Below, one piece after another: positions 1 through 38,535 of a DNA stretch of 64,000 nt. The notes under the pieces are model-generated. The model was not told the DNA's origin and did not search any database. It saw only the letters and a program-made list of their open reading frames with translations. Position numbers and translations under genes: made by a program. The stretch covers positions 361,183 through 425,182 of the forward strand of contig JBAYJV010000001.1 of NCBI GenBank assembly GCA_041664925.1, read 5' to 3'. Position 1 is the first letter of the stretch. Every line of letters begins with the position of its first letter. The DNA comes from Minisyncoccota bacterium (lineage in GTDB: Bacteria; Patescibacteriota; Minisyncoccia; JBAYJV01).

Positions 1-1922
1 GTATTGCTGTTGGTATGGCGACAAATATTCCACCCCACAATTTTGGAGAAGTTATTGATGCAACGACAGCGGTAATTAATAAACCAACGATTTCTCCTCA
101 AGAACTTTCAGAAATTATTCCGGGTCCAGATTTTCCAACCGGGGGAATAATTTATGATTCAAAGGCGATTAGTGAGGCTTATGCTCAGGGAAAGGGCGGT
201 TTTGTCTGTCGAGCCAAAGCAGAAATTGAGGAATCTAAAGGAGGCAATTATCAAATCATAGTTAGCGAACTTATTTGGCAAGTGAATAAATCTGTATTAG
301 TTGAAAGAATAGCGGAATTAGTTAAGCTAAAAAAATTAGTTGGCATTAGGGGTTTAAGAGATGAATCAAATCGCGAAGGTGTTCGGATTGTTATAGAACT
401 TAAGAAAGGTTTTCAGCCAAAAAAAATTCTCAATAAACTTTACAAGCTAACTGATCTTCAAAAAACCTATCATCTCAATCTTTTGGCTCTCGTTGATGGA
501 ATCCAGCCGCAAATTTTATCCTTAAAAGAAATCCTAGAAAAATTTGTTGAACATCGCCTTATTGTTATAAAAAAGAGATCAGAATTTGAATTAAGAGAAG
601 CTGAGGCGCGAGCGCATATTTTAGAAGGATTCAGTAAGGCAATAAAAAATATTGAAGAAATCATTGAGACGATCAAGAAATCTAAAGACAAAGATGTTGC
701 TCAGAAAAACCTTGTTTCAAAATTTGGTTTTAGTGAAATTCAGGCAGAAGCTATCTTAAAAATGCGACTGCAAGCATTGGCAGGTCTTGAAAGAAAAAGA
801 ATAGAAGATGAACTGATTGAGAAGAAAAAGCTCATCGGCGAACTTAAAGACTTAATTTCTAGCCCGGATAAAATAAAGAGCTTGCTAAAGAAAGAACTAG
901 CAGAACTTAGGCATCTATATAGCGACGAAAGACGTACCAAGGTAATTTCTCGACCCATTAAATCAATTGGCGAAGATGAGCTGGTTCAAGAACAGGATAT
1001 CTTCATTACTATTACAAATGATGGTTATATCAAGCGATCGCCCCTTGAGGTCTATAAACAACAACACAGAGCCGGTATGGGTGTTTCAGGAATTGTTACT
1101 AAAGAAGAAGATGTTGTCAGACACCTTTTGTTCGCTTCAACAACAGACCAAATTCTCTTCTTCACAGACAAGGGAAAAGTTTTATCGCTCAGAGCTTATG
1201 AGATACCCGAGGCGAGCCGCACTTCAAAAGGAAAGCCGATGGTCAATATTGTCGAACTAGATGGCGGAGAAAGGGTAACGGCGGTATTAATTCTTAAAAA
1301 ACAACATCTTGAAAACCAAGAAAATGTCTGTGTTGTTATGGCTACCCAAGGTGGTATAATAAAAAAAACACCCATAAAAGACTTTACCAATATCAGAAAA
1401 TCTGGCATAAGGGCAATCAGGCTTAACATCGGTGATTTCTTGGGTTGGGCGGACATAGCGGAGGCAGATAATGAAATTTTCTTAGCAACTAAGAATGGAC
1501 AATCAATCCGTTTCCCAGGGAAAGATGTTCGTTCTATGGGTCGCAATTCAACGGGAGTAAGAGCAATTCGCCTTAAGGATCAAGACAAAGTTAAATGTAT
1601 GACAGTTGTGGGAAAATCTGACAAGAAAATGTTAGTTTTGATCAGCGAAAATGGTCTTGGAAAAAAGACAAGTCTAGACAAGTTTCGTGCGCAAAAAAGA
1701 GGTGGATCGGGCATTAAGGCTATGAAAGTTACTCCAAAAACTGGACCAATAGCGAGCGCTTTGTTCTTAAGTGATGAAGAAAACCTGATTATTATTTCAA
1801 AACACGGCAAAGTGATCCGAATGACGCTTAGTGGCATTCCTGTTTTAGGCAGAAACACACAAGGCGTTAGGATTATGAAACTTAAAGATGGAGATAGCGT
1901 TGCCGACTTCATAGCTTTTTAA
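1..1922 (+). CDS. gyrA: DNA gyrase subunit A, C-terminal portion (5'-truncated by window edge)
   Basis: Frame is open from base 3. Sequence AVGMATNIPPHNFGEVID matches the conserved GyrA segment after the active-site region. The long C-terminal beta-pinwheel repeat region follows. Confidence 0.9.
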   Translation, partial: IAVGMATNIPPHNFGEVIDATTAVINKPTISPQELSEIIPGPDFPTGGIIYDSKAISEAYAQGKGGFVCRAKAEIEESKGGNYQIIVSELIWQVNKSVLVERIAELVKLKKLVGIRGLRDESNREGVRIVIELKKGFQPKKILNKLYKLTDLQKTYHLNLLALVDGIQPQILSLKEILEKFVEHRLIVIKKRSEFELREAEARAHILEGFSKAIKNIEEIIETIKKSKDKDVAQKNLVSKFGFSEIQAEAILKMRLQALAGLERKRIEDELIEKKKLIGELKDLISSPDKIKSLLKKELAELRHLYSDERRTKVISRPIKSIGEDELVQEQDIFITITNDGYIKRSPLEVYKQQHRAGMGVSGIVTKEEDVVRHLLFASTTDQILFFTDKGKVLSLRAYEIPEASRTSKGKPMVNIVELDGGERVTAVLILKKQHLENQENVCVVMATQGGIIKKTPIKDFTNIRKSGIRAIRLNIGDFLGWADIAEADNEIFLATKNGQSIRFPGKDVRSMGRNSTGVRAIRLKDQDKVKCMTVVGKSDKKMLVLISENGLGKKTSLDKFRAQKRGGSGIKAMKVTPKTGPIASALFLSDEENLIIISKHGKVIRMTLSGIPVLGRNTQGVRIMKLKDGDSVADFIAF

Positions 1923-1947
1923 GTATTAAATTCGTGTTTAAACTCAT

Positions 1948-2493
1948 ATGTTTGGCAAAGGAGGTTTCTTAAATCCTAAAAAACTACTTACCGATATTGG
2001 AGTTGTCGGATTAGGACAAAAAGTAGCTGATTTTGGTTGTGGTTCCGGATATTTTTCTCTACCGCTCGCAGAACTAGTGGGAAGCGATGGTGCTGTCAAT
2101 GCTGTCGATGTCCTTGAGAGTGCTTTGCAAGTTGTTACGACCCGCGCAAAAAACGCAGGTTTTTTTAATGTAAAAACGATTCATGCTAATCTTGAAAAAG
2201 AACATGGCTCGGGATTGGCAACTGATTCTCAGGATATAGTTTTGATGGCAAATGTGCTTTTTCAATCTCAAAAAAAGGAAGAAATTATTAGCGAAGCTGT
2301 TCGAGTGATCAAGCCAGGGGGCAGAGTCGTAATTATTGAGTGGTTTCCTGATAGTTATTTTATGACAGATCGTGGCTGGAGAATTGATCCGGAAAAATTA
2401 AAAAAGATTCTCGAAAAAAACGGGTTAATTTTTGACAAGGAATTTCAACCTGACGATTATCATTACGGATTGGTTTATAGGAAAATGGAGTAA
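1948..2493 (+). CDS. class I SAM-dependent methyltransferase (small, 181 aa)
   Basis: Motif I-like DFGCGSGYFSLPLA and a following acidic loop (AVDV) typical of the Rossmann-fold methyltransferase family. Confidence 0.55.
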   Translation: MFGKGGFLNPKKLLTDIGVVGLGQKVADFGCGSGYFSLPLAELVGSDGAVNAVDVLESALQVVTTRAKNAGFFNVKTIHANLEKEHGSGLATDSQDIVLMANVLFQSQKKEEIISEAVRVIKPGGRVVIIEWFPDSYFMTDRGWRIDPEKLKKILEKNGLIFDKEFQPDDYHYGLVYRKME

Positions 2494-2524
2494 AGTGAAA
2501 TTTGTTATACTATTATCGAAATAA

Positions 2525-3922
2525 ATGTCTAAATCGAGGTTAATATTTTTTAGTGTTGTTGGATTTTTGATCATTATTCTTGTAGGAGGATTTTATATTT
2601 GGTTTAAAGGAGGAAAGCCCAAAGAAGTTACCTTAACTTTCTGGGGCGTTTTTAATGATACTGACCAATACTCGGGATTAATTGCCAAGTTTCGCCAAGA
2701 ACAATTGGCGCTAAAGAGAAGTCCCAAAAAAATTACAATTAATTACAAAAAATTTAATTCTTATGAAGAATATGAAAGAGCTTTGGTTGAAGCATGGACA
2801 GGGAAAATAAAGGGTCCGGATATTTTTATGATTCATGATACTTGGCTGCCCAATTATCAGCAGTATATTTACCCTTATCCCCAAACCAGCAAAAGCTCAA
2901 TGAATGCCCAATTATATCAGCAAACCTTTATGCCGGTAGCCAGTTACGACTTTTTAAGAAATGGGCAAATTTACGCCATTCCTCTGTCAATTGATACTTT
3001 GGCGCTTTACTATAATAAAGATATTTTAGACGAAATGTATCGCGGTAATCCCGATGAAGCGTGGGTTTTAAATGCGCCAAAAACATGGGATGATGTTATA
3101 AAACTTGCTGAATATACCGCGCAAAAAGATGAATGGGGAAATATCGGCCGATCAGGCATTGCTCTTGGAACAGCAAATAATATAAAAAGAGCGCAAGATA
3201 TTTTGTCTTTGATTATGCTTCAATCAGGGACACAGATGGTAGCAGACGATTTTCTTTCAACAACATTTGATAGAACCGTCACAGTCAACGGCGCTGCCTA
3301 TAATCCGGGAGAACAATCCCTTCAGTTTTATACAGATTTTGCCAATCCAAGAAAGAAAGTTTATGCCTGGAATACCCAAAAAAATTATTCAATTGATGAG
3401 TTTGCCGATGGAAATTTAACCATGATGATTGGCTATTCGTATCTTATGGGCACTATCGAAAAGAAAAATGCCAATCTTGGCTATGAAATTGGAACAGCGC
3501 CTCAACTTAAAGAAGTTAAAAAATCAGTTAATTATGCGAACTACTGGGGACTTTCCGTTCCGCGGACAACAAGTCGTCCCCAAGAAGCGTGGGATTTTAT
3601 TGAATTTTCTTCAAGATCAGAAAATGTTTTTCTTTTTCTCAGTGCTGCCAATTGCCCGACTGCAAGAATGGACATGATATCCTGGCAAGAAAAAGAGATG
3701 CCAAAATTGGGTGTTTTTGCGCGCCAAGGATTAACGGCGCAAAGCTGGTATCAAATTAATTCTGCTTCTGCCGATAAAGTGTTTTTGGAGATGATTAATA
3801 ATGTTAATATGGGAAAAGCGACACCAGCAAGAGCGATCAACGAAGCATCCAATGAATTAACGCTTTTAATGCAGCCGCCACCGCCAGAAAAAAAACCAAT
3901 TCTAAATCCATTAGATCTATAG
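2525..3922 (+). CDS. extracellular solute-binding protein, ABC-transporter SBP family-1-like, N-terminal membrane anchor
   Basis: N-terminal TM helix followed by a ~430 aa domain with the general pattern of sugar-type solute-binding proteins. No permease genes adjacent. Confidence 0.45.
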   Translation: MSKSRLIFFSVVGFLIIILVGGFYIWFKGGKPKEVTLTFWGVFNDTDQYSGLIAKFRQEQLALKRSPKKITINYKKFNSYEEYERALVEAWTGKIKGPDIFMIHDTWLPNYQQYIYPYPQTSKSSMNAQLYQQTFMPVASYDFLRNGQIYAIPLSIDTLALYYNKDILDEMYRGNPDEAWVLNAPKTWDDVIKLAEYTAQKDEWGNIGRSGIALGTANNIKRAQDILSLIMLQSGTQMVADDFLSTTFDRTVTVNGAAYNPGEQSLQFYTDFANPRKKVYAWNTQKNYSIDEFADGNLTMMIGYSYLMGTIEKKNANLGYEIGTAPQLKEVKKSVNYANYWGLSVPRTTSRPQEAWDFIEFSSRSENVFLFLSAANCPTARMDMISWQEKEMPKLGVFARQGLTAQSWYQINSASADKVFLEMINNVNMGKATPARAINEASNELTLLMQPPPPEKKPILNPLDL

Positions 3923-3928
3923 CATATT

Positions 3929-5122
3929 ATGAAAATAGCAAAAAAAATATTTGGCATATCTTTTGTTAGTTTTCTTTTGTTTTTTGCAGTTAATGTACTT
4001 GCAATAGATCCGCCAACAGGATTAAACATAAATCATAGTGGCACTCCACCGAACGTAGCCGTTATAATTGAATGGGACGACGAATCAGCTGAATATTACA
4101 AGGTTTATGCTAATGGAGTGCAAATAGGAGACGATTTTTATAATCCGACCCCTCATCATGTTTTTGTATATACCGAGTCGTCTTCTGGGGATTATGTTTA
4201 TGGCGTAGAATCTTTTGATCCAGTCACAGGAGATGTTTCGTCGCGATTGGAACAATCATACACTGTTCCTGTTGTCGATCCGCCAACTAACCTATCATTA
4301 AATCAAGACGCAGATAATCGAGTTGATGTCAGCTGGAATGGAACATCTCAACAATATAGGGTATATAGAGATGGTAATTTAGTGAATACCACGACAGCAG
4401 GCAATACAAATTTTCAGGACGTTAATGTTCCAACAGGAAATCATTTATATAAAGTAACATCATATAATGCGACGATCAACGCAGAGTCAACTCCCATTAG
4501 CGCTTCGATTGATGTTACTGGACCAGGTTCTTTTGTGGAAGACTGTGATAATACAATGGAAGATGACGGTGATGGAAAAATTGACTGCGAAGACCCTGAC
4601 TGTTCAGCAGACCCTGCTTGTGTCCCACCTCCTATTGAAATCTGCACCGGTGGCGTAGATGAAGACAACGATGGATTAGTTGATTGTGCTGATGATAATT
4701 GTCTTGGTGATCCTGCGTGTACTGGGGGAGGAACTCATCGGCCATCAGGAGATCTTTTTCCTATTATCCAATGCGGCTATAATTGTCCTGGTGTTTTTCC
4801 CGGAGATCCGGGCGCCGATTGTTGTACGCTTTGCGATGCGTTTGAGACAATATCGCGCATTATTAATATTATTTTAATGTTCGGTTTCATTTTGGGTGGC
4901 ATGTTTTTAGTGGTTGCTGGGATTATTATGTATGCAGGGGGAGCGAGTTCTGGTTTATTAAATAAATCAAAAACTATTATAAAAGGCGTGATTTTTGGGC
5001 TTGTGATTATGCTGGTTTCTTATTTAATCGTCTTTACTATTATTCATTTCCTTTCTGCCGGCAATGCTGATACTTTATTTAGTATAAAAAATGGCGGATT
5101 TGTTATCGAATGCACGCCATAA
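3929..5122 (+). CDS. secreted protein: two Fn3-like repeats + Cys/Asp-rich calcium-binding-like module + C-terminal VirB2/TrbC-like two-helix pilin domain
   Basis: Signal peptide. Two repeats each starting DPPTGLN/DPPTNLS. Block DCDNTMEDDGDGKIDCEDPDC...DEDNDGLVDCADDNC. C-terminal ~100 aa is homologous to the three following small proteins (hydrophobic helix - GG loop - hydrophobic helix). Confidence 0.4.
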   Translation: MKIAKKIFGISFVSFLLFFAVNVLAIDPPTGLNINHSGTPPNVAVIIEWDDESAEYYKVYANGVQIGDDFYNPTPHHVFVYTESSSGDYVYGVESFDPVTGDVSSRLEQSYTVPVVDPPTNLSLNQDADNRVDVSWNGTSQQYRVYRDGNLVNTTTAGNTNFQDVNVPTGNHLYKVTSYNATINAESTPISASIDVTGPGSFVEDCDNTMEDDGDGKIDCEDPDCSADPACVPPPIEICTGGVDEDNDGLVDCADDNCLGDPACTGGGTHRPSGDLFPIIQCGYNCPGVFPGDPGADCCTLCDAFETISRIINIILMFGFILGGMFLVVAGIIMYAGGASSGLLNKSKTIIKGVIFGLVIMLVSYLIVFTIIHFLSAGNADTLFSIKNGGFVIECTP

Positions 5123-10959: not shown

Positions 10960-12441
10960 TTACAGTATTTTTCCAATTAAATATTCTACGGGTGCGAAAG
11001 AGTCAGTTAGAATAGGTGTTTCAGAAGGAATAATTATATGATTTTCTAAATTATTAAAATAGGTTTCAAATTCTGTGCCGGAAATACTGTTGAGCATTGC
11101 TGATAAATCGAAATCTTTATTTTTTAAAGAGACAATCATAATATTTTGGACAGTCTTTTGATCTTGAGTTTCAACGGGAAAGACCAAAACATTGGGAAAT
11201 ACCGTTTTTAATGTTTTATATTCTGCTTTGAAAAACTCGCTCTTTTCTCCTGAAAGCGCAGAAATAACATTTGTGATCAAAACTCCATTTTTATTGAGAG
11301 CATTATGCATCTTTTCAACAACTTCTTTTGTTGTTAATTGATGCGGAATGGCGTAAGTTGAACTAAAGGCATCGTTATAAATCACATCATATTTTTCTTG
11401 ATTATTGTTTAGATAAATTCTTCCATCCTCGTGAAATACCCTAAGTCTTTCATCTTCTTTTAAGTCAAAGTAGGTTTTGGCTAGTTTTGTTACTTCAGGA
11501 TCAATCTCTACAACATCAATCTCGCCTTGAGAATGTCTTTTTAAGAAATCTTTTGGCACAGAATAGGCGCCACCACCAATCATAAGAGCTTTTTTGATAT
11601 TAGAATAAAAAAAATCACCGAGACGGTAAAATTTGGTATATTCAAAAACCAATTCATCGGATTGATCGAGGTACATAGCCGAATGAAAATCGCTTCCCAT
11701 TCTCAGAATTCTAATTGGTCGATCTTCTTTATTTCTTGTATCGTAAATTTCTATATGGTTATATGCGCTGTCTTTTTCAACTAGGTATTTTGCATTTAAA
11801 CTTTCTGATAAAAATACAAGCCCAGAGAAAGTCACCAAAAAGAATGCAGATAAAAGAATTGCTCTTTTCAAAGAGTACGCCATTATTGATGTTAAAATAA
11901 GAACTAAACTAATGCCAAAAAGAATATGTTCGAGCTTGAAGTAGGGGATTAACCAAAAACCTGCTAAAAATGTCCCAAAAATACTACCCAAAGTTGAAAG
12001 CGCGTAAAGTGTGCCAGCCGTTTTTCCTGATGTTTGGATATTTTTTATTTTAAGTTTTAGTGCGTAAGGAGAAACCATGCCCAGTAAAATTGAAGGAATC
12101 GCAAAAAGAAAAAAGGCGGCAAAGATTCCGCCCAATTTTATATTCATCAAAGCACCAAATTCTAGAATAGAGTCTTTAAACAAAGGAAGTATTCCAATAA
12201 AGACAGCGCTTGCAAGAATTATGCCAGCAAGATAGTTGGGTTTAGGCTTAAGGTCAGCCAATTTTCCTCCTAGCCAATAACCAAGACTCAGGGCGCCTAA
12301 AATAATCCCTATCAAGCTTGCCCAAATATAAATAGATGTCCCTAGGTAGGGAGCAATAATTCGAGCACCCAAAAGTTCCAAAATCATCACAGATGCTCCG
12401 CAGATAAAAACTATCAGTTCTAGCTTGCTAATCTTTTTCAT
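10960..12441 (-). CDS. spermidine/spermine-synthase-like aminopropyltransferase fused to N-terminal multi-TM domain
   Basis: N-terminal ~200 aa with 6-7 TM helices, then a PABS-like domain: ALMIGGGAYSVPKDF (GGGDG-like), DVVEIDPEV, DVIYNDAF. Confidence 0.55.
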   Translation of the reverse strand: MKKISKLELIVFICGASVMILELLGARIIAPYLGTSIYIWASLIGIILGALSLGYWLGGKLADLKPKPNYLAGIILASAVFIGILPLFKDSILEFGALMNIKLGGIFAAFFLFAIPSILLGMVSPYALKLKIKNIQTSGKTAGTLYALSTLGSIFGTFLAGFWLIPYFKLEHILFGISLVLILTSIMAYSLKRAILLSAFFLVTFSGLVFLSESLNAKYLVEKDSAYNHIEIYDTRNKEDRPIRILRMGSDFHSAMYLDQSDELVFEYTKFYRLGDFFYSNIKKALMIGGGAYSVPKDFLKRHSQGEIDVVEIDPEVTKLAKTYFDLKEDERLRVFHEDGRIYLNNNQEKYDVIYNDAFSSTYAIPHQLTTKEVVEKMHNALNKNGVLITNVISALSGEKSEFFKAEYKTLKTVFPNVLVFPVETQDQKTVQNIMIVSLKNKDFDLSAMLNSISGTEFETYFNNLENHIIIPSETPILTDSFAPVEYLIGKIL

Positions 12442-12444
12442 AAA

Positions 12445-12466
12445 AAAATGCCGGGGACAGGACTTG
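12445..12466. repeat. 22-bp exact direct repeat of the 3' end (plus 4 flanking nt) of tRNA-Leu(TAG); copy at 13146-13167
   Basis: AAAATGCCGGGGACAGGACTTG is identical at both sites, ~700 bp apart. att-site-like arrangement. Confidence 0.7.
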
Positions 12467-12583: not shown

Positions 12584-13027
12584 TTAGAGTAAATCTTTCA
12601 CTATAATGGCTTCTCTATCTCTTGCTGCTTGACTTGCAATTTCATCAATATTTTTATTTCCAACTCTGGTATTTAACGTTCTATCAACGGCTATGCCAGA
12701 ATACTTTACCCATAATTTTTGTGCAATCTCGGGATTTATCGTTGTTCCGTCTACTTTTCCAAAAAATATCTGTTCTTCGTTTTCTGGGATATAAGATATT
12801 TCAAGATTATGCCCACTAATGTCTCCAGTAAACATACCGCCTTCGTTCGAAGAATTTATTTCTATTTCTATATATCCTTCTTTTCCCATTGCTCTTAAAC
12901 CTTCAATCATCTTTTCGCGCTGTTCTGATAATTCTTTCTGATCATCTCTCATAACTTCTTCGGCTTTAATTTCTTCTAGGGATTTCTCTGATCCGGATTC
13001 TTGTGATTCTCCTTTTAATATACTCAT
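12584..13027 (-). CDS. hypothetical acidic protein (147 aa) lying between the tRNA-Leu 3'-end repeats
   Basis: Clean ORF, no recognisable motifs. Confidence 0.3.
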   Translation of the reverse strand: MSILKGESQESGSEKSLEEIKAEEVMRDDQKELSEQREKMIEGLRAMGKEGYIEIEINSSNEGGMFTGDISGHNLEISYIPENEEQIFFGKVDGTTINPEIAQKLWVKYSGIAVDRTLNTRVGNKNIDEIASQAARDREAIIVKDLL

Positions 13028-13149: not shown

Positions 13150-13231
13150 TGCCGGGGACAGGACTTGAACCTGCACGGGTTTCCCCACAAGGTCCTAAAC
13201 CTTGCGTGTCTGCCAGTTTCACCACCCCGGC
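13150..13231 (-). tRNA. tRNA-Leu (anticodon TAG), long variable arm
   Basis: Cloverleaf read by eye. Acceptor GCCGGGG/CCCCGGC+A. Anticodon loop TTTAGGA. T-loop TTCAAGT. Confidence 0.8.
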
Positions 13232-25257: not shown

Positions 25258-25504
25258 GTTAATGTAATACGGATAATAATTTATATAAAACAAAAAAAAC
25301 AGTAATCATATCTATTCTATAATATCAAATATCAAGTATAGGCGAGAAATCAAGCAGTGTCAATGAACATGGGCACTAGAGGACTCGTTCTGAACCAGAG
25401 CAGAGCACGGTTCAGGACTAATCTGAAGTATGTTTTATTCTACTTTTCAGGGCAAACCTATGACCTCTATGGTGTTTTATTTGGGGTACTCTATTTCTTA
25501 TGCG

Positions 25505-25578
25505 TGGGCACTATAGGATTCGAACCTATGACCTTCTGGATGTAAACCAGACGCTCTAACCAACTGAGCTAAGTGCCC
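25505..25578 (-). tRNA. tRNA-Val (anticodon TAC)
   Basis: Acceptor GGGCACT, anticodon loop TTTACAT, T-loop TTCGAAT. Confidence 0.8.
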
Positions 25579-28754: not shown

Positions 28755-29213
28755 TTATTTTTTCGTATCAGTAACAACATCTTTTGTTCCTTCTCTATCT
28801 TTTTCTTTTGAGATACCTTCTGGTTTAACTTTATTATTTCCTGTTTTTTTTCCTGAACCTTGTTCGAGCCTGAGTCTCTTTTGAATTTCCTTTTCTGTCT
28901 TTTTTCTTACCCAGTAAAGTTTTGCCTTGCTGACACGTTTCGGCTTTTTAACAATTTCAATCTTTTTAATGCTTGGCGAATATAGTGGAAAAATCTTTTC
29001 AACACCTATACCAGAAATTACTCGACGTACCGTAAAAGTAGCACCTGTTTCATCTCCGTGCTTTCTAGCTATGACAAGACCTTCAAAAGATTGAATTCTT
29101 TTTTTGTCTCCCTCTTCGATTTCTTGAAAAACTTTTACAAGATCTCCAGCTCTAAAGCCTAGTAAATCTTGTCTTTTTTGATTCGTAAGTAATTTATTTA
29201 CTGAATTTGTCAT
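28755..29213 (-). CDS. rplS: 50S ribosomal protein L19 with Lys-rich C-terminal extension
   Basis: FRAGDLVKV...EGLVIARKHGD...FTVRRVISGIGVE core L19 motifs. Confidence 0.85.
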   Translation of the reverse strand: MTNSVNKLLTNQKRQDLLGFRAGDLVKVFQEIEEGDKKRIQSFEGLVIARKHGDETGATFTVRRVISGIGVEKIFPLYSPSIKKIEIVKKPKRVSKAKLYWVRKKTEKEIQKRLRLEQGSGKKTGNNKVKPEGISKEKDREGTKDVVTDTKK

Positions 29214-30207
29214 GTTTTAAATTATTTAAAAAACTAGTCAAACTAACTGGCAATGGAGAGTAAAATTGATAATACTCGTTCTTGAATTTAAATGCAAGCT
29301 TTTCGGCGTGTAAAAACATTCTTTTAATTTTTACTACTGGTAATTTTTTAGTCGTGTAAAGAGGATCGCCAACGATCGGATAATTCATGGAAAACAATTG
29401 AGCTCTTAACTGATGAGTGCGACCGGTTTCTGGAAATAATGAAAGCAATGTATAGGGGATATTATCGCGATCAATTAGTTTTTTTTCAACCCGATAATAA
29501 GTAATAGCTTTTCTAGCCTTTAAATCTCCTCGCGGCTTTACTAAACTAACTCTTGCATTTGGTTTTTTATGAGAACGAGAAAGGTAACTCTCGATCTTTC
29601 CTTCTTTTTCCCTAAAATGTCCAAATACCAAAGCTTTATAGGTTTTTTTAACTTGTCTTTCCTTGAATAGTGATTTTAATTCAAGAAAAGAATTTTGATT
29701 TTTAGCAACTAGGAGAAGTCCTGATGTTTCCTTATCTAGCCTATGAACAAGACCTGGTCTTAATGGATGTTCTCCGACATTTTTTAACTCTGGGCAATGA
29801 ACTAAAAGCCCACCAACTATTGTCTTGATATTAGGATTACGATCAGGATGAACCAAAATGCCTGCTTGCTTATGAAGAACTAAAAAATCTTTATTTTCAA
29901 AAGCGATCCATAGTTTTACTGAACTATCTTGTGAAATTTTAACCTGCTTTTTTTCTTGAACAGCAATTTTTATTTTATCACCTCTTTTTAAAATATATCT
30001 TGATTCTGTTTTATGATCGTTGACACTAACAGATCCTTGCTTAATCATTTCTTGGAGCCAATTTCGCGACAACTCAGGAAACTGTTTTTTTAAAAACACA
30101 TCTATTCTTAATCTGTCATCGTTTTTAATTAAAAAAAATTTTATCAGCATGTTTTGTGGGGCAAGATGGACTCGAACCATCGACCCCGACTTTAATGTCG
30201 TAGACAA
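29194..30207 (-). CDS. RluA-family 23S rRNA pseudouridine synthase (RluD-like, S4 domain + catalytic domain)
   Basis: HRLDKETSGLLLVAKN catalytic Asp motif. The first 19 codons of the ORF overlap a partial tRNA-Ile copy, so the true start is probably the ATG at 30150 (MLIKFF...). Confidence 0.8.
   Translation of the reverse strand: MSTTLKSGSMVRVHLAPQNMLIKFFLIKNDDRLRIDVFLKKQFPELSRNWLQEMIKQGSVSVNDHKTESRYILKRGDKIKIAVQEKKQVKISQDSSVKLWIAFENKDFLVLHKQAGILVHPDRNPNIKTIVGGLLVHCPELKNVGEHPLRPGLVHRLDKETSGLLLVAKNQNSFLELKSLFKERQVKKTYKALVFGHFREKEGKIESYLSRSHKKPNARVSLVKPRGDLKARKAITYYRVEKKLIDRDNIPYTLLSLFPETGRTHQLRAQLFSMNYPIVGDPLYTTKKLPVVKIKRMFLHAEKLAFKFKNEYYQFYSPLPVSLTSFLNNLKHDKFSK
30152..30194 (-). repeat. 43-nt exact partial duplicate of the 3' half of tRNA-Ile(TAT)
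   Basis: TTTTGTGGGGCAAGATGGACTCGAACCATCGACCCCGACTTTA is identical to 30253-30295. There is no upstream 5' half or acceptor partner, so it is not a functional tRNA. Confidence 0.7.
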
Positions 30208-30257
30208 AAGTCGGGTACTATGAGGCTAAGCGAATATTATTAAAAACCTTGTTTTTG

Positions 30258-30330
30258 TGGGGCAAGATGGACTCGAACCATCGACCCCGACTTTATAAGA
30301 GTCGTGCTCTACCGACTGAGCTATTGCCCC
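30258..30330 (-). tRNA. tRNA-Ile with UAU anticodon
   Basis: GGGGCAA-TA-GCTC-AGTCGGTA-GAGC-A-CGACT-CTTATAA-AGTCG-GGGTC-GATGG-TTCGAGT-CCATC-TTGCCCC-A. Loop C32 U33 U34 A35 U36 A37 A38. Confidence 0.75.
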
Positions 30331-30341
30331 TTACAAGGACA

Positions 30342-31028
30342 TTAAATTTCTATGTGTTTTATTTCTGGTGGCTGCTCTTCTTTTTGTTTTGTGCCTTTCT
30401 CTCTTTTTTCATAAGGCCTACCAAATGGATCCAGAATTTCACTAAATGGAATTTTTATCATTCCTTGGGGTGTTCTAAAAATTGCTATTTCGCTATCACA
30501 ATATATTAATTCACCGTTTATAATACCAAGTTCGGTTCTGTGACCCCTTGATCCGACAGATGGCCAATCTGGGAATATTTCTGTTATTGTCGGTTGTTCT
30601 GTTTTGGAAACAATTAACTGTAATTCTTCTGGAGATAATTCTTTCGCTGATGGTGGCAAAATCGGGGGATTCTCTGGAGACTCTTCTATAGGATATTTTT
30701 CTCCTTTTTTCAACAAAATACACGAAGCAACAACTCCTTTTCTCTTTAATATATCAAGCATCTGTCTCAATTCTTCTTCGTGATATGGGTTATAATTTTT
30801 AACAAGAATTTCTGGTCTATCTTCGGAGAGCACATCGATTTCAATATTGCCCTTATCGAAAGTATCTATAATTATCGTAATTCTCCCATCTTCGCAAGTG
30901 TTTTGTGATTCCAATTTACAGCCCAGACTTTCAAATGCCTCAGCAATAGATCGTGCAGTACTTTCTGTTATTTTTTCTCGAGAGAGTATTTTCTCTCCTT
31001 CTTTTGGTGAAAATTCCCCAGAATGCAT
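30342..31028 (-). CDS. hypothetical protein (228 aa)
   Basis: Clean ORF; no recognisable family motif. Confidence 0.3.
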   Translation of the reverse strand: MHSGEFSPKEGEKILSREKITESTARSIAEAFESLGCKLESQNTCEDGRITIIIDTFDKGNIEIDVLSEDRPEILVKNYNPYHEEELRQMLDILKRKGVVASCILLKKGEKYPIEESPENPPILPPSAKELSPEELQLIVSKTEQPTITEIFPDWPSVGSRGHRTELGIINGELIYCDSEIAIFRTPQGMIKIPFSEILDPFGRPYEKREKGTKQKEEQPPEIKHIEI

Positions 31029-31061
31029 ATATTTTTAATATTAAATGATATTGCGAATTTG

Positions 31062-31135
31062 TGGGCTCGACAGGACTTGAACCTGTGACCTTCTCAATGT
31101 CACTGAGACGCTCTAGCCAACTGAGCTACGAGCCC
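31062..31135 (-). tRNA. tRNA-Val (anticodon GAC)
   Basis: GGGCTCG acceptor, anticodon loop GTGACAT, T-loop TTCAAGT. Confidence 0.75.
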
Positions 31136-37472: not shown

Positions 37473-38384
37473 TTATTTTCTTGTCTTGTCGTGAAATTTT
37501 TGATGAATTTCTTTTAATCCCTTATCGGTAACATGGGTATAAATTTGAGTTGTGGATACATTGGCATGACCCAATAGGGCTTGAACTGATCTCAGGTCTG
37601 CTCCTCCTGCCAATAAATCGGTAGCAAATGAATGTCTTAAGGTATGCGGAGTAATCTGTTTTACTATTCCGGCCCTAATTGTCCATTTTTGCACAATTCT
37701 TTGAACTGATCTGGGGGTAAGTCTTAAGTTGTCTCGTTTTCCAACTTTTTTAATGCGGGCAAATAGGGACGGATCAACATCTGTGCGTTTTTCTAAGTAC
37801 TTCTTTATGGCTTCTTTGGCTTTTTCAGAAAGAAAAACAATTCTGATTTTATCCCCCTTACCCTTAATGCTAAAATCTGTTTTTTCTAGGTTAATTTTTT
37901 CTCTATTTAAACTACAAAGCTCTGATACCCGAAGGCCAGTGCTAAAAAGAGTTTCTAAAATTGCTTTATCCCTGAGATTAGTTATTTTGACACGGTCTTT
38001 TTCTTTCTCTAATGGCGTTGCCAATAATCTCTCAAGCTCGTTACCATCTAAAATTTCAATTTCGTGCTGACCACTTTTTGCGAGTTCTATTTTTTCTGGA
38101 GAAAGCGAAGTAATATTATTTTTAGAAAAGTAAAGCAAGAATCCTCGAAGAGCAATTAGGTGATAATTTTGAGTAATCTTTTTAAGTTGACCGTTATTCA
38201 GGCGATTAAGGTAAAGACGATATTCTCGAACTAAATCGCCAGTAATCTGCTCTGGTTTTTCTATTTTTGCCCACTCCAAGAAACGATTTAAGTATCTTCT
38301 ATAATTATCTAAGGTTTTTTGACTAGAACCTCTCTCAATTTCAAGGTAGTCAAGGTAGCGCTTAATAAGATCATTTATGGTCAT
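37473..38384 (-). CDS. xerC: tyrosine site-specific recombinase, XerC/XerD-like
   Basis: N-terminal SAM-like core-binding domain. C-terminal catalytic motifs R...HTLRHSFATDLLAGGADLRSVQALLGHANVSTTQIYTHV (His-x-x-Arg, catalytic Tyr). Confidence 0.8.
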   Translation of the reverse strand: MTINDLIKRYLDYLEIERGSSQKTLDNYRRYLNRFLEWAKIEKPEQITGDLVREYRLYLNRLNNGQLKKITQNYHLIALRGFLLYFSKNNITSLSPEKIELAKSGQHEIEILDGNELERLLATPLEKEKDRVKITNLRDKAILETLFSTGLRVSELCSLNREKINLEKTDFSIKGKGDKIRIVFLSEKAKEAIKKYLEKRTDVDPSLFARIKKVGKRDNLRLTPRSVQRIVQKWTIRAGIVKQITPHTLRHSFATDLLAGGADLRSVQALLGHANVSTTQIYTHVTDKGLKEIHQKFHDKTRK

Positions 38385-38535
38385 ATTTTTATTATAGTAG
38401 AAAAAATCTAATTCTATTATACGACATATAATTTGTAAAATCTACAACTATACTTGTTTTTTTTGAATTTTGTGCTATCATGGGAAGGAAGAAGGGCGAA
38501 GTCTTCTAATATTTGTCTTTATTGATTTTTTGTTT

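Follow-up and report, generated by a model that had tools for sequence, protein, structure and literature searches.

A tRNA-Ile(UAU) 3′ half in front of rluA in a Minisyncoccota genome: a possible relic of recombination at the anticodon loop

How does the 3′ half of a tRNA gene come to stand a second time, about 100 nucleotides (nt) downstream of the intact gene and immediately in front of a protein-coding gene? The question is raised by the interval between tRNA-Ile(UAU) and rluA, a pseudouridine synthase gene, in a Minisyncoccota bacterium; the interval lies in a 64-kb stretch (G+C content, 35%) of GenBank assembly GCA_041664925.1 (contig JBAYJV010000001.1, positions 361,183 to 425,182), which we analyzed as a whole and refer to as the window. 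As a first-pass annotation of this DNA had noted, a 43-nt sequence, TTTTGTGGGGCAAGATGGACTCGAACCATCGACCCCGACTTTA, is exactly duplicated here, at 30152-30194 and 30253-30295; the window holds these two copies and no others, and none is expected by chance (100 shuffles, up to 3 mismatches permitted). We found that the downstream copy is neither a tRNA nor coding sequence and is the dead 3′ half of a tRNA-Ile(UAU) gene of the allele present here, which we call type A. The explanation that we favor, with a probability of roughly one half, is that it is a relic of recombination at the anticodon loop, which displaced the resident 3′ half, and that it was then homogenized and amplified by unequal crossing-over at a hotspot for cargo.

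The repeated tRNA half and the start of rluA

Read in tRNA sense, the repeat starts at anticodon position T36, takes in the variable loop, T arm, acceptor-stem 3′ strand and A73, and ends 5 nt (CAAAA) into the trailer; its tRNA-derived share, from the anticodon loop on, is 38 nt. A repeat finder recovered the pair as a direct-repeat family (D1) with a spacing of 101, the gap between the copies being 58 nt. The downstream copy is followed by a single C and then by the ATG of rluA (30150-30148). No tRNA was called in 30152-30252 by ARAGORN, intron options included, or by the Rfam tRNA model, and the copy lacks both the acceptor 5′ strand (GGGGCAA) and the D arm, in keeping with the earlier statement that it is not a tRNA. 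The intact gene is the only tRNA-Ile(UAU) called in the window. Decoding of AUA by a tRNA-Ile with a UAU anticodon is uncommon in bacteria.

Identity between the copies is 100% from T36 onward, and nothing significant is shared 5′ of T36. Comparison of the intervening DNA (a spacer and the arm directly 5′ of the downstream copy) with the tRNA 5′ half, and with the 5′ flank plus 5′ half, gave no significant similarity in shuffle tests (p = 0.06-0.47), and the boundary of identity at position 35/36 is therefore sharp; likewise, no derivation of the spacer from the tRNA, its 5′ flank or rluA was detectable. We also considered a decayed full-length tandem copy of the tRNA, the 5′ part of which would, by eye, keep TAGC(C)TCA and CGACT, and rejected it on these local-alignment shuffle tests. 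The junction carries an interrupted hairpin of 13 base pairs (bp), made up of a copy of the anticodon-stem 5′ strand (CCCGACT, which directly precedes the fragment), a mini-stem of 3 bp and the first part of the pseudo-tRNA 3′ half. The one promoter-like sequence found in the spacer, a sigma-70-like 9/12 match (TTGCCC-18-AATAAT, 30265-30236), is no better than chance.

The fragment also bears on the start of rluA. A TTG-initiated open reading frame (ORF; 29194-30207) runs through the downstream copy and yields the N-terminal extension MSTTLKSGSMVRVHLAPQN. The NCBI call for the window's RluA protein is 318 amino acids (aa) long, RluA homologues at 56-70% identity begin at the equivalent of the ATG at 30150, and the extension MVRVHLAPQN is confined to gene calls from fragment-bearing genomes. 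Across these genomes it is unchanged while the true N-terminus diverges (MLIKFF vs MITKNF), an invariance that arises because it is encoded by tRNA-derived DNA. Judged from these sequences, the extension is spurious, as had been suspected from the window alone, and the real start is the ATG at 30150. Since gene callers translate the fragment in several public datasets, it should be marked as a pseudo-tRNA or repeat in annotation and the rluA start shifted to 30150. A mimic of a tRNA anticodon arm through which RluA would regulate its own gene was considered and rejected: the enzyme is RluD/RluC-like with an S4 domain, and the element is missing in the closest relative.

Alleles of the interval in related genomes

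The window was compared with loci of relatives from other assemblies (coded L001-L073). Their syntenic order is conserved (Lactamase_B_3, tRNA-Arg(UCU), tRNA-Val(GAC), …, tRNA-Ile(UAU), …, rluA, rplS, tRNA-Leu(GAG), VSR_TRX). The closest relative, L026/L059, has an RluA 97% identical to that of the window, and L001/L028 one that is 88% identical; a sister lineage (L055-L058 and L060-L062; Lactamase_B_3 86% identical) comes from five Joint Genome Institute (JGI) samples. More distant are L002 (RluA 70% identical) and L005-L008 (61%), and L064-L073 belong to a distant groundwater lineage of the candidate phyla radiation (CPR), different from that of the window. A scan of genome contigs with RluA returned only distant homologues (30-41% identical), unusable for synteny.

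Five alleles of the tRNA-Ile-rluA interval were found (Table 1), and the content of the interval differs in every lineage. A tRNA-Ile gene identical to that of the window is present in L055-L058, and the other relatives carry a different allele, type B, at the syntenic site. The type-B gene of L001 differs from type A in every stem, in both halves, yet it adjoins a type-A fragment. This fragment is broken by a 29-nt insertion and a 20-nt palindrome; when the insertions are ignored, 60/60 nt are identical to the window, compared with 85.8% overall, and form the longest perfect block in 1.3 kb. In L002 and L005-L008, a type-B tRNA-Ile is accompanied by other cargo and no type-A fragment.

In the sister lineage, the fragment is present as an array. 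L056 carries the tRNA and three units of spacer, arm and 3′ half (Tandem Repeats Finder: period 99, 3.4 copies, 100% matches); as assembled from short reads, the number of extra units is 3 in L056, at least 3 in L055, and 1 each in L057 and L058, compared with 1 (period 101) in the window. The 99-nt array demonstrates that the repeat has undergone unequal recombination. The ~100-nt unit (58-nt spacer and arm plus 3′ half) is thus present in at least three related Candidatus Paceibacterota lineages. On this distribution, it is an old and heritable unit of variable copy number, which would already have been carried by the common ancestor of several related Paceibacterota lineages. The first-pass annotation had proposed a scar left by an excised element. 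Because the same tandem arrangement, with conserved sequence, is found in relatives, the structure has been inherited and is no recent scar; furthermore, no empty site or excised form was found, and in no relative examined does tRNA-Ile directly abut rluA. The alternative offered there, a recombination hotspot, fares better, as recombination at a tRNA gene has left its footprint in the repeat and the cargo differs among relatives.

This cargo is best seen in L060, where the array and rluA lie on one contig with 2.1 kb between them. It is of restriction-modification (RM) type, with an XRE-helix-turn-helix (HTH) fragment, a split N6/N4 methyltransferase, a 337-aa gene and a 70-aa gene, and it sits beyond the array rather than between the tRNA and the first fragment, with a flanking identity of just 4 nt (CCCA). 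Upstream of rluA, unrelated cargo has repeatedly been joined to the 3′ end of the fragment (…CCCA). The fragment is dispensable, since it is missing in the closest relative and the cargo separates the array from rluA in L060.

Several further observations concern these alleles. In L059, an RM-like island (1-3340; HTH_3, N6_N4 methyltransferase, HNH and two unknown genes) lies immediately upstream of rluA and is bounded by ~130-bp GC-rich inverted repeats; over the rluA-proximal ~200 nt, similarity to the final part of the different L060 cargo is 74%. An older, decayed pseudo-tRNA in this rluA-proximal sequence of L059 and L060 was considered and rejected, the 8-9-nt CC(C)ACAAAA alone being in common (p = 0.12-0.35 without it). 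The 20-nt GC-rich palindrome of L001, CCTGCCTGCCGGTAGGCAGG, occurs at 2399-2418, after tRNA-Val(GAC), and at 3714-3733, at the variable-loop position of the pseudo-tRNA, and the same is true of L028; it resembles a small, palindromic insertion element of a dispersed kind. Other pseudo-tRNA units (L002, L059) contain similar GC hairpins. Of the 228-aa ORF upstream of the window's tRNA-Ile, only the C-terminal ~50 aa are common to a 74-aa gene of L001, and the ORF is missing in L055-L058. Close relatives (window, L001, L002, L005, L056) carry sharply different single-copy tRNA alleles at the same site, namely tRNA-Ile(UAU) type A vs B and tRNA-Val(GAC) GGGCTCG… vs GGACGGT… (window 30257-30330 and 31061-31135), and RluA proteins are mosaic between lineages, P0134 combining a window-like N-terminus with an L001-like C-terminus. 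Together, the divergent tRNA alleles and mosaic RluA proteins point to frequent recombination in the population.

Table 1. Features around tRNA-Ile(UAU) in the window and alleles of the interval in relatives
Feature	Position in window	Strand	Basis
Intact tRNA-Ile(UAU), type A allele (GGGGCAA...TTGCCCCA)	30257/8-30330	-	ARAGORN; Rfam tRNA 74.4 bits
Repeat copy 1: T36-A73 of intact tRNA plus trailer CAAAA	30253-30295	-	exact 43-nt match
Repeat copy 2, pseudo-tRNA-Ile 3′ half: variable loop, T arm, acceptor 3′ strand, A73, CAAAA	30152-30194	-	
Spacer and arm between copies, 58 nt	30195-30252	-	homologous to L001 and L056 spacers (alignments)
Extended hairpin / inverted repeat, CCCGACUUUUGUC-UAC-GACAUUAAAGUCGGG	30185-30215	-	minimum-free-energy folds; inverted repeat I15
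228-aa ORF between tRNA-Val(GAC) and tRNA-Ile, variable	30342-31028	-	no family match
rluA, RluD/RluC-like pseudouridine synthase (S4 and PseudoU_synth_2)	29194-30150	-	Pfam; start ATG 30150-30148
Spurious N-terminal ORF extension (MSTTLKSGSMVRVHLAPQN), read from pseudo-tRNA fragment	30151-30207	-	
Allele (a), window: tRNA-Val, 228-aa ORF, tRNA-Ile type A, pseudo-tRNA, rluA			
Allele (b), L001/L028: tRNA-Val, 74-aa gene, 224-aa HTH gene, tRNA-Ile type B, homologous spacer, type-A fragment, rluA			
Allele (c), L055-L058 and L060-L062: tRNA-Val, tRNA-Ile type A, 99-nt-unit tandem array, 2.1 kb cargo, ATTACCCACAAAATATG-rluA			
Allele (d), L026/L059: fragment missing; HTH/methyltransferase/HNH island, then …ACACCACAAAATATG-rluA			
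Allele (e), L063: fragment abuts rluA; arm GTCTACGAC changed to ATCTTCGAT			

Origin of the fragment

We propose that the arrangement most likely arose by recombination at position 35/36 of the anticodon loop. A segment with a complete tRNA-Ile gene and a short flank would have landed in front of the 3′ half of the resident gene; the resident gene would have been broken and its function retained through the incoming copy. The two 43-nt direct repeats, ~100 nt apart, could then undergo unequal crossing-over or gene conversion, by which their identity would be kept and their number changed. Unequal crossing-over between the pair would explain both the perfect identity and the 99-nt arrays, and a change in copy number is directly seen in the perfect tandem array of the sister lineage. 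On a wider scale, segments with complete tRNA genes would repeatedly recombine into resident tRNA genes throughout the clade; only events that bring a working copy would survive, and halves of the old genes would persist.

Since the window holds no 5′ remnant of an outer tRNA, we infer nesting at its locus from relatives. In L005 (~868-1370), the order is the 5′ half of a tRNA X, a 44-nt sequence repeated 4 times in tandem, the 5′ half of a tRNA C, an intact tRNA-Ile(UAU), the C 3′ half and the X 3′ half. The C halves (5′ half, …CTATTCTTATA; 3′ half, TAAAGTAG…TGGCTCCA) have complementary acceptor and anticodon stems and, when joined in silico, are called as tRNA-Ile(UAU) by ARAGORN; this pair in turn lies within the two halves of the third tRNA, X, and complementary flanks (TTTGCC..GAGG / CCTC..GGCAAA) border the inner insert. 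A complete tRNA within a split tRNA is also found, by sequence, in L064 (1340-2440; also in L065-L073), where tRNA-Val(GAC) lies between the halves, with the flanks ACCAAT/ATTGGT, and the 3′ half ends 2 nt before an rluA-like ATG. Smaller traces are present nearer to the window: L001/L028 and L055-L058 carry a 10-nt 5′ remnant of type-A tRNA-Ile, CAATAGCTCA, ahead of their intact tRNA-Ile (40 nt upstream in L055-L058), and downstream of tRNA-Val, L001/L028 retain a decayed 3′ portion of the tRNA-Val(GAC) allele seen in the window. At another site, L060 (3769-4578) has, in order, rplS, a 27-nt 5′ fragment of the window-type tRNA-Leu(GAG), a LAGLIDADG_3 gene (3852-4490) and a complete, different tRNA-Leu(GAG) (4495-4578); from the sequence, this looks like an endonuclease-associated tRNA allele replacement. 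Across the wider set of tRNA fragments, break points fall in the conserved D, anticodon and T loops.

A number of points weigh against anticodon-loop replacement as the origin. The window has the 3′ half of the outer tRNA alone, the 5′ remnant in relatives is just 10 nt long, and the clearest nested cases come from distant lineages (RluA 61% identical or less) or concern other tRNAs. The fragment belongs to the allele of the intact tRNA both in the window and in L056, which fits an attL/attR pair or a local duplication equally well. The array copy numbers could be collapsed or inflated by short-read assembly. Finally, no recombinase or endonuclease was found that is tied to the Ile locus.

This last point deserves detail, as it bears on the possible agents. 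Scans with Pfam and PHROGs of all interval genes in the window, L001, L002, L005, L059 and L060 revealed no integrase or other recombinase in the tRNA-Ile-rluA interval of any of the five alleles. The sole tyrosine recombinase of the window (37473-38402, minus strand; Phage_integrase family) is 7 kb away, adjoins rpsO, and is 94% identical to and syntenic with its L055 homologue, which has SAM-like N-terminal domains; it is probably the chromosome resolvase of Xer type rather than a gene belonging to a mobile element. The window's tRNA-Ile locus has no endonuclease gene, and replacement of the allele there by a homing endonuclease thus lacks its enzyme. A group I intron (Intron_gpI) had no Rfam match in the window, L001, L002, L005 or L056, and the window has no 5′ exon. 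Candidate agents are a trans-acting recombinase, an endonuclease break repaired from a foreign allele, and microhomology-mediated illegitimate recombination after DNA uptake.

One protein recurs beside tRNA-Ile(UAU). The 224-aa HTH protein of L001 (2831-3505, P0142; homologues P0143-P0261) belongs to a CPR-wide family of >3,300 members (62-71% identity) with the invariant motifs LAGLFLYWGEGxK, SNTDP and NHxGGFGHGT, and in two distant lineages (L001, L064) its gene stands just ahead of tRNA-Ile(UAU), the tRNA overlapping the 3′ end of the gene by 10 nt in L064. The 64-kb window contains no copy. In its AlphaFold model (predicted local distance difference test, pLDDT, 80.7), the match to PDB structures is limited to an N-terminal HTH of recombinase/transposase type; a role as a homing endonuclease was rejected, there being no recognizable nuclease fold in the model.

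Classical integration is the first alternative. A tyrosine-integrase attP site with the 3′ half of tRNA-Ile would have entered the anticodon loop; the intact gene would be attL, the fragment with its arm attR, and the interior would have been deleted down to 58 nt. The repeat, running from the anticodon loop to the 3′ end and trailer, is a canonical identity block for such an event, and the conserved non-tRNA arm with an inverted repeat directly 5′ of it resembles the attP-derived motif of the Dehalococcoides ssrA islands (PMC3146451). RM-type cargo lies at the fragment boundary in relatives, and a 147-aa ORF is enclosed by the window's second repeat of a tRNA 3′ end (Leu-UAG, 22 nt). Against this, of the marks of att sites the direct repeat of the tRNA 3′ segment is present at the locus; an integrase, element-sized DNA and empty sites are not. 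The first-pass annotation had called the repeat a footprint of tyrosine-recombinase action at an attL/attR pair: the direct repeat of a tRNA 3′ segment stands, and the enzyme does not, the only candidate being the syntenic Xer-like gene. The geometry gives a mixed picture. A chimera of host 5′ part and element 3′ part of one allele is compatible with the window and L056 and is contradicted by L001, where the fragment adjoins a tRNA that differs in both halves, and the complete tRNAs within split tRNAs of L005 and L064 are not of attL/attR geometry. Furthermore, the L060 cargo comes after the array, with its 4 nt of identity, and the "loop" enclosed by the inverted arm is 13-17 nt rather than a 7-nt anticodon loop. 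Viral contigs contain no exact match to the arm or the type-A 3′ end, which speaks against a phage or viral source of either. We therefore regard classical integration as unlikely.

A second alternative needs no foreign DNA: slippage or unequal exchange would have duplicated in tandem a ~100-nt segment of the tRNA 3′ half and its downstream flank. The perfect 99-nt array of variable copy number in the sister lineage is what such a process would give, as are the 101-nt period and the 100% identity of the copies in the window. The spacer should then recur after the last 3′ half; instead, rluA or cargo follows directly, and the spacer has no detectable source in the tRNA, its 5′ flank or rluA. 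Nor would local duplication explain a type-B tRNA next to a type-A fragment, or the nested halves here and at other tRNAs, and we find it improbable.

As a third alternative, the element could be a functional RNA, in which the hairpin and a T-arm/acceptor minihelix in the tRNA-Ile trailer and rluA leader would serve as an RNase P/Z-type signal for a near-leaderless rluA mRNA or as a protein-binding site. The perfect 60-nt block shared by the window and L001 has flanks that diverge on both sides, and the two insertions of L001 fall at structure-tolerant spots (hairpin interior and variable-loop position). L063 has one compensatory change in the mini-stem, and L056 a change in the hairpin loop. 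The RNA folds better than shuffled sequences (z = -3.2 to -3.7), including the GGGGU/T-arm/GCCCC minihelix, and fragment 3′ ends repeatedly abut start codons, namely those of rluA (in the window and in L064) and of the gene that follows tRNA-Leu(UAG). However, the closest relative does without the fragment, and in L060 the array is remote from rluA. The covariation is a single pair and not significant (115/500 shuffles do as well); the 43 tRNA-derived nt may stay identical through conversion from the intact gene, and conservation of the 17 non-tRNA nt by themselves is not significant (0.86^17 ~0.08). No Rfam family matches the pseudo-tRNA element, which leaves no known RNA family for it, and the tRNA-Leu(UAG) repeat consists of 18 tRNA nt and TTTT with no stem-loop of its own. 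A functional role thus seems improbable. An assembly artefact through mis-joined or duplicated reads, to which the frequent breaks of other samples' contigs at or near the locus might point, is effectively refuted, because the same or a larger form was recovered in independent assemblies of many samples from three sequence-distinct lineages (L001/L028, L055-L058, L060, L063).

Debris of the same sort is found at other tRNAs, which favors the recombination origin. The last 18 nt of the window's tRNA-Leu(UAG) (13150-13231, minus strand) and a TTTT trailer (CAAGTCCTGTCCCCGGCATTTT) occur again ~680 nt downstream, at 12445-12466. This 22-nt repeat starts in the T loop, and its architecture matches that of the Ile locus: one ORF (12584-13027) lies between the tRNA and its partial copy, and the copy ends 7 nt (counted from the tRNA-derived ...GGCA) before the ATG at 12441 of a 493-aa membrane-protein gene. 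After tRNA-Val(UAC) (25504-25578, minus strand), a copy of its 3′ part (AGGTCATAGGTT … AGTCCTCTAGTGCCCA) lies at 25370-25466, 37 nt after the gene; within the T loop, the copy is broken up by an insert of ~70 nt that includes a conserved hairpin (CCTGAACC…GGTTCAGG), and the copy ends just before a conserved nusA promoter (TTGACA-17-TATACT). Perfect blocks of this copy are conserved in L026/L059, the copy is missing in L005/L008, and the element had no match among Rfam families. In L002 (66-260), a hairpin-rich spacer of ~70 nt separates tRNA-Val(GAC) from an exact duplicate, 43 nt long, of its own 3′ part with a 13-nt trailer; this pseudo-tRNA region scores 28.1 bits on the Rfam tRNA model, just below threshold, and has a GC-rich replacement anticodon arm with the loop GUGAUAC. 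L064 also carries a LAGLIDADG_3 gene after rplS.

Based on the nested tRNAs we speculate, very tentatively, that an undescribed process operates in CPR bacteria, in which segments with complete tRNA genes insert at or near position 35/36 of the resident homologous tRNA, where introns characteristically lie in this phylum, functionally replace it, and leave nested halves and pseudo-tRNA arrays; the 3′ halves may act as minihelix signals for near-leaderless mRNAs, and the 224-aa HTH protein could take part. Independently of this, the locus documents tRNA genes as active recombination sites even in a streamlined genome of ~0.4-0.8 Mb. Alleles of tRNA-Ile(UAU), the single-copy AUA decoder, are swapped between lineages, with older halves nested around newer genes; short arrays grow and shrink, and RM cargo lands at the same junction. 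Should the tRNA-in-tRNA pattern prove general, it would amount to a new way in which CPR bacteria turn over their tRNA genes and would be a practical marker of horizontal-transfer hotspots in genomes otherwise without recognizable mobile elements.

Comparison with known systems

The arrangement shares features with several known systems. Like the Dehalococcoides ssrA islands, it has a direct repeat of a 3′ part after an intact gene and a conserved non-gene motif 5′ of the repeats, as well as tandem repeats and strain-specific cargo at a hotspot of plasticity (PMC3146451). Each of those islands has a serine-recombinase module, and the repeats bound kilobase-sized islands (PMC3146451). In contrast, the locus studied here lacks a recombinase and spaces its repeats at ~100 nt, with identical spacers; the cargo follows the array and is bounded by just 4 nt of identity.

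The closest parallel to the array itself is the tyrT locus of E. coli, where Egan and Landy in 1978 reportedly described tyrT-distal repeats of 178 bp, present 3.14 times, each with the 3′ end of tRNA-Tyr. Those units too follow the tRNA head to tail, each ends in a tRNA 3′ segment, and their number can change by unequal recombination. The tRNA part is ~19 nt per repeat there, compared with 38 nt from the anticodon loop here. The tyrT repeats are not known to be connected with the insertion of cargo or the replacement of tRNA alleles.

Group I introns at tRNA position 35/36 of Patescibacteria share the phylum, the position and the use of the anticodon loop as insertion site (PMC13011429). Unlike these, the loci studied here have no detected ribozyme, and the inserts of relatives hold complete tRNA genes. 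The 5′ splice sites of group I introns use U, and position 35 here is A.

SegB, a free-standing homing endonuclease in the tRNA clusters of phages T4/T6, is reported to drive segmental amplification of tRNA loci (PMC13096335). The L060 LAGLIDADG gene between a 5′ fragment of the resident tRNA-Leu(GAG) and a complete, different tRNA-Leu(GAG) is similar, as is the tandem amplification, and the window's tRNA-Ile locus, with no endonuclease gene, is unlike it. The L060 layout is what endonuclease-driven allele replacement would be expected to give.

Split tRNAs (in Nanoarchaeum) and bulge-helix-bulge (BHB) introns occur in Archaea. The former resemble the halves of L005 and L064, which are broken in the anticodon loop and have complementary flanks that could pair; here the host is bacterial, and neither a splicing-endonuclease context nor a BHB motif was evident at the halves. 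Because the halves flank a complete tRNA of the same identity, they are more likely pseudogenes than trans-spliced genes.

The arrangement is thus set apart from these known kinds by four features: it has no integration module, its units are ~100 nt long, a foreign tRNA allele stands beside the fragment, and complete tRNAs lie within split ones.

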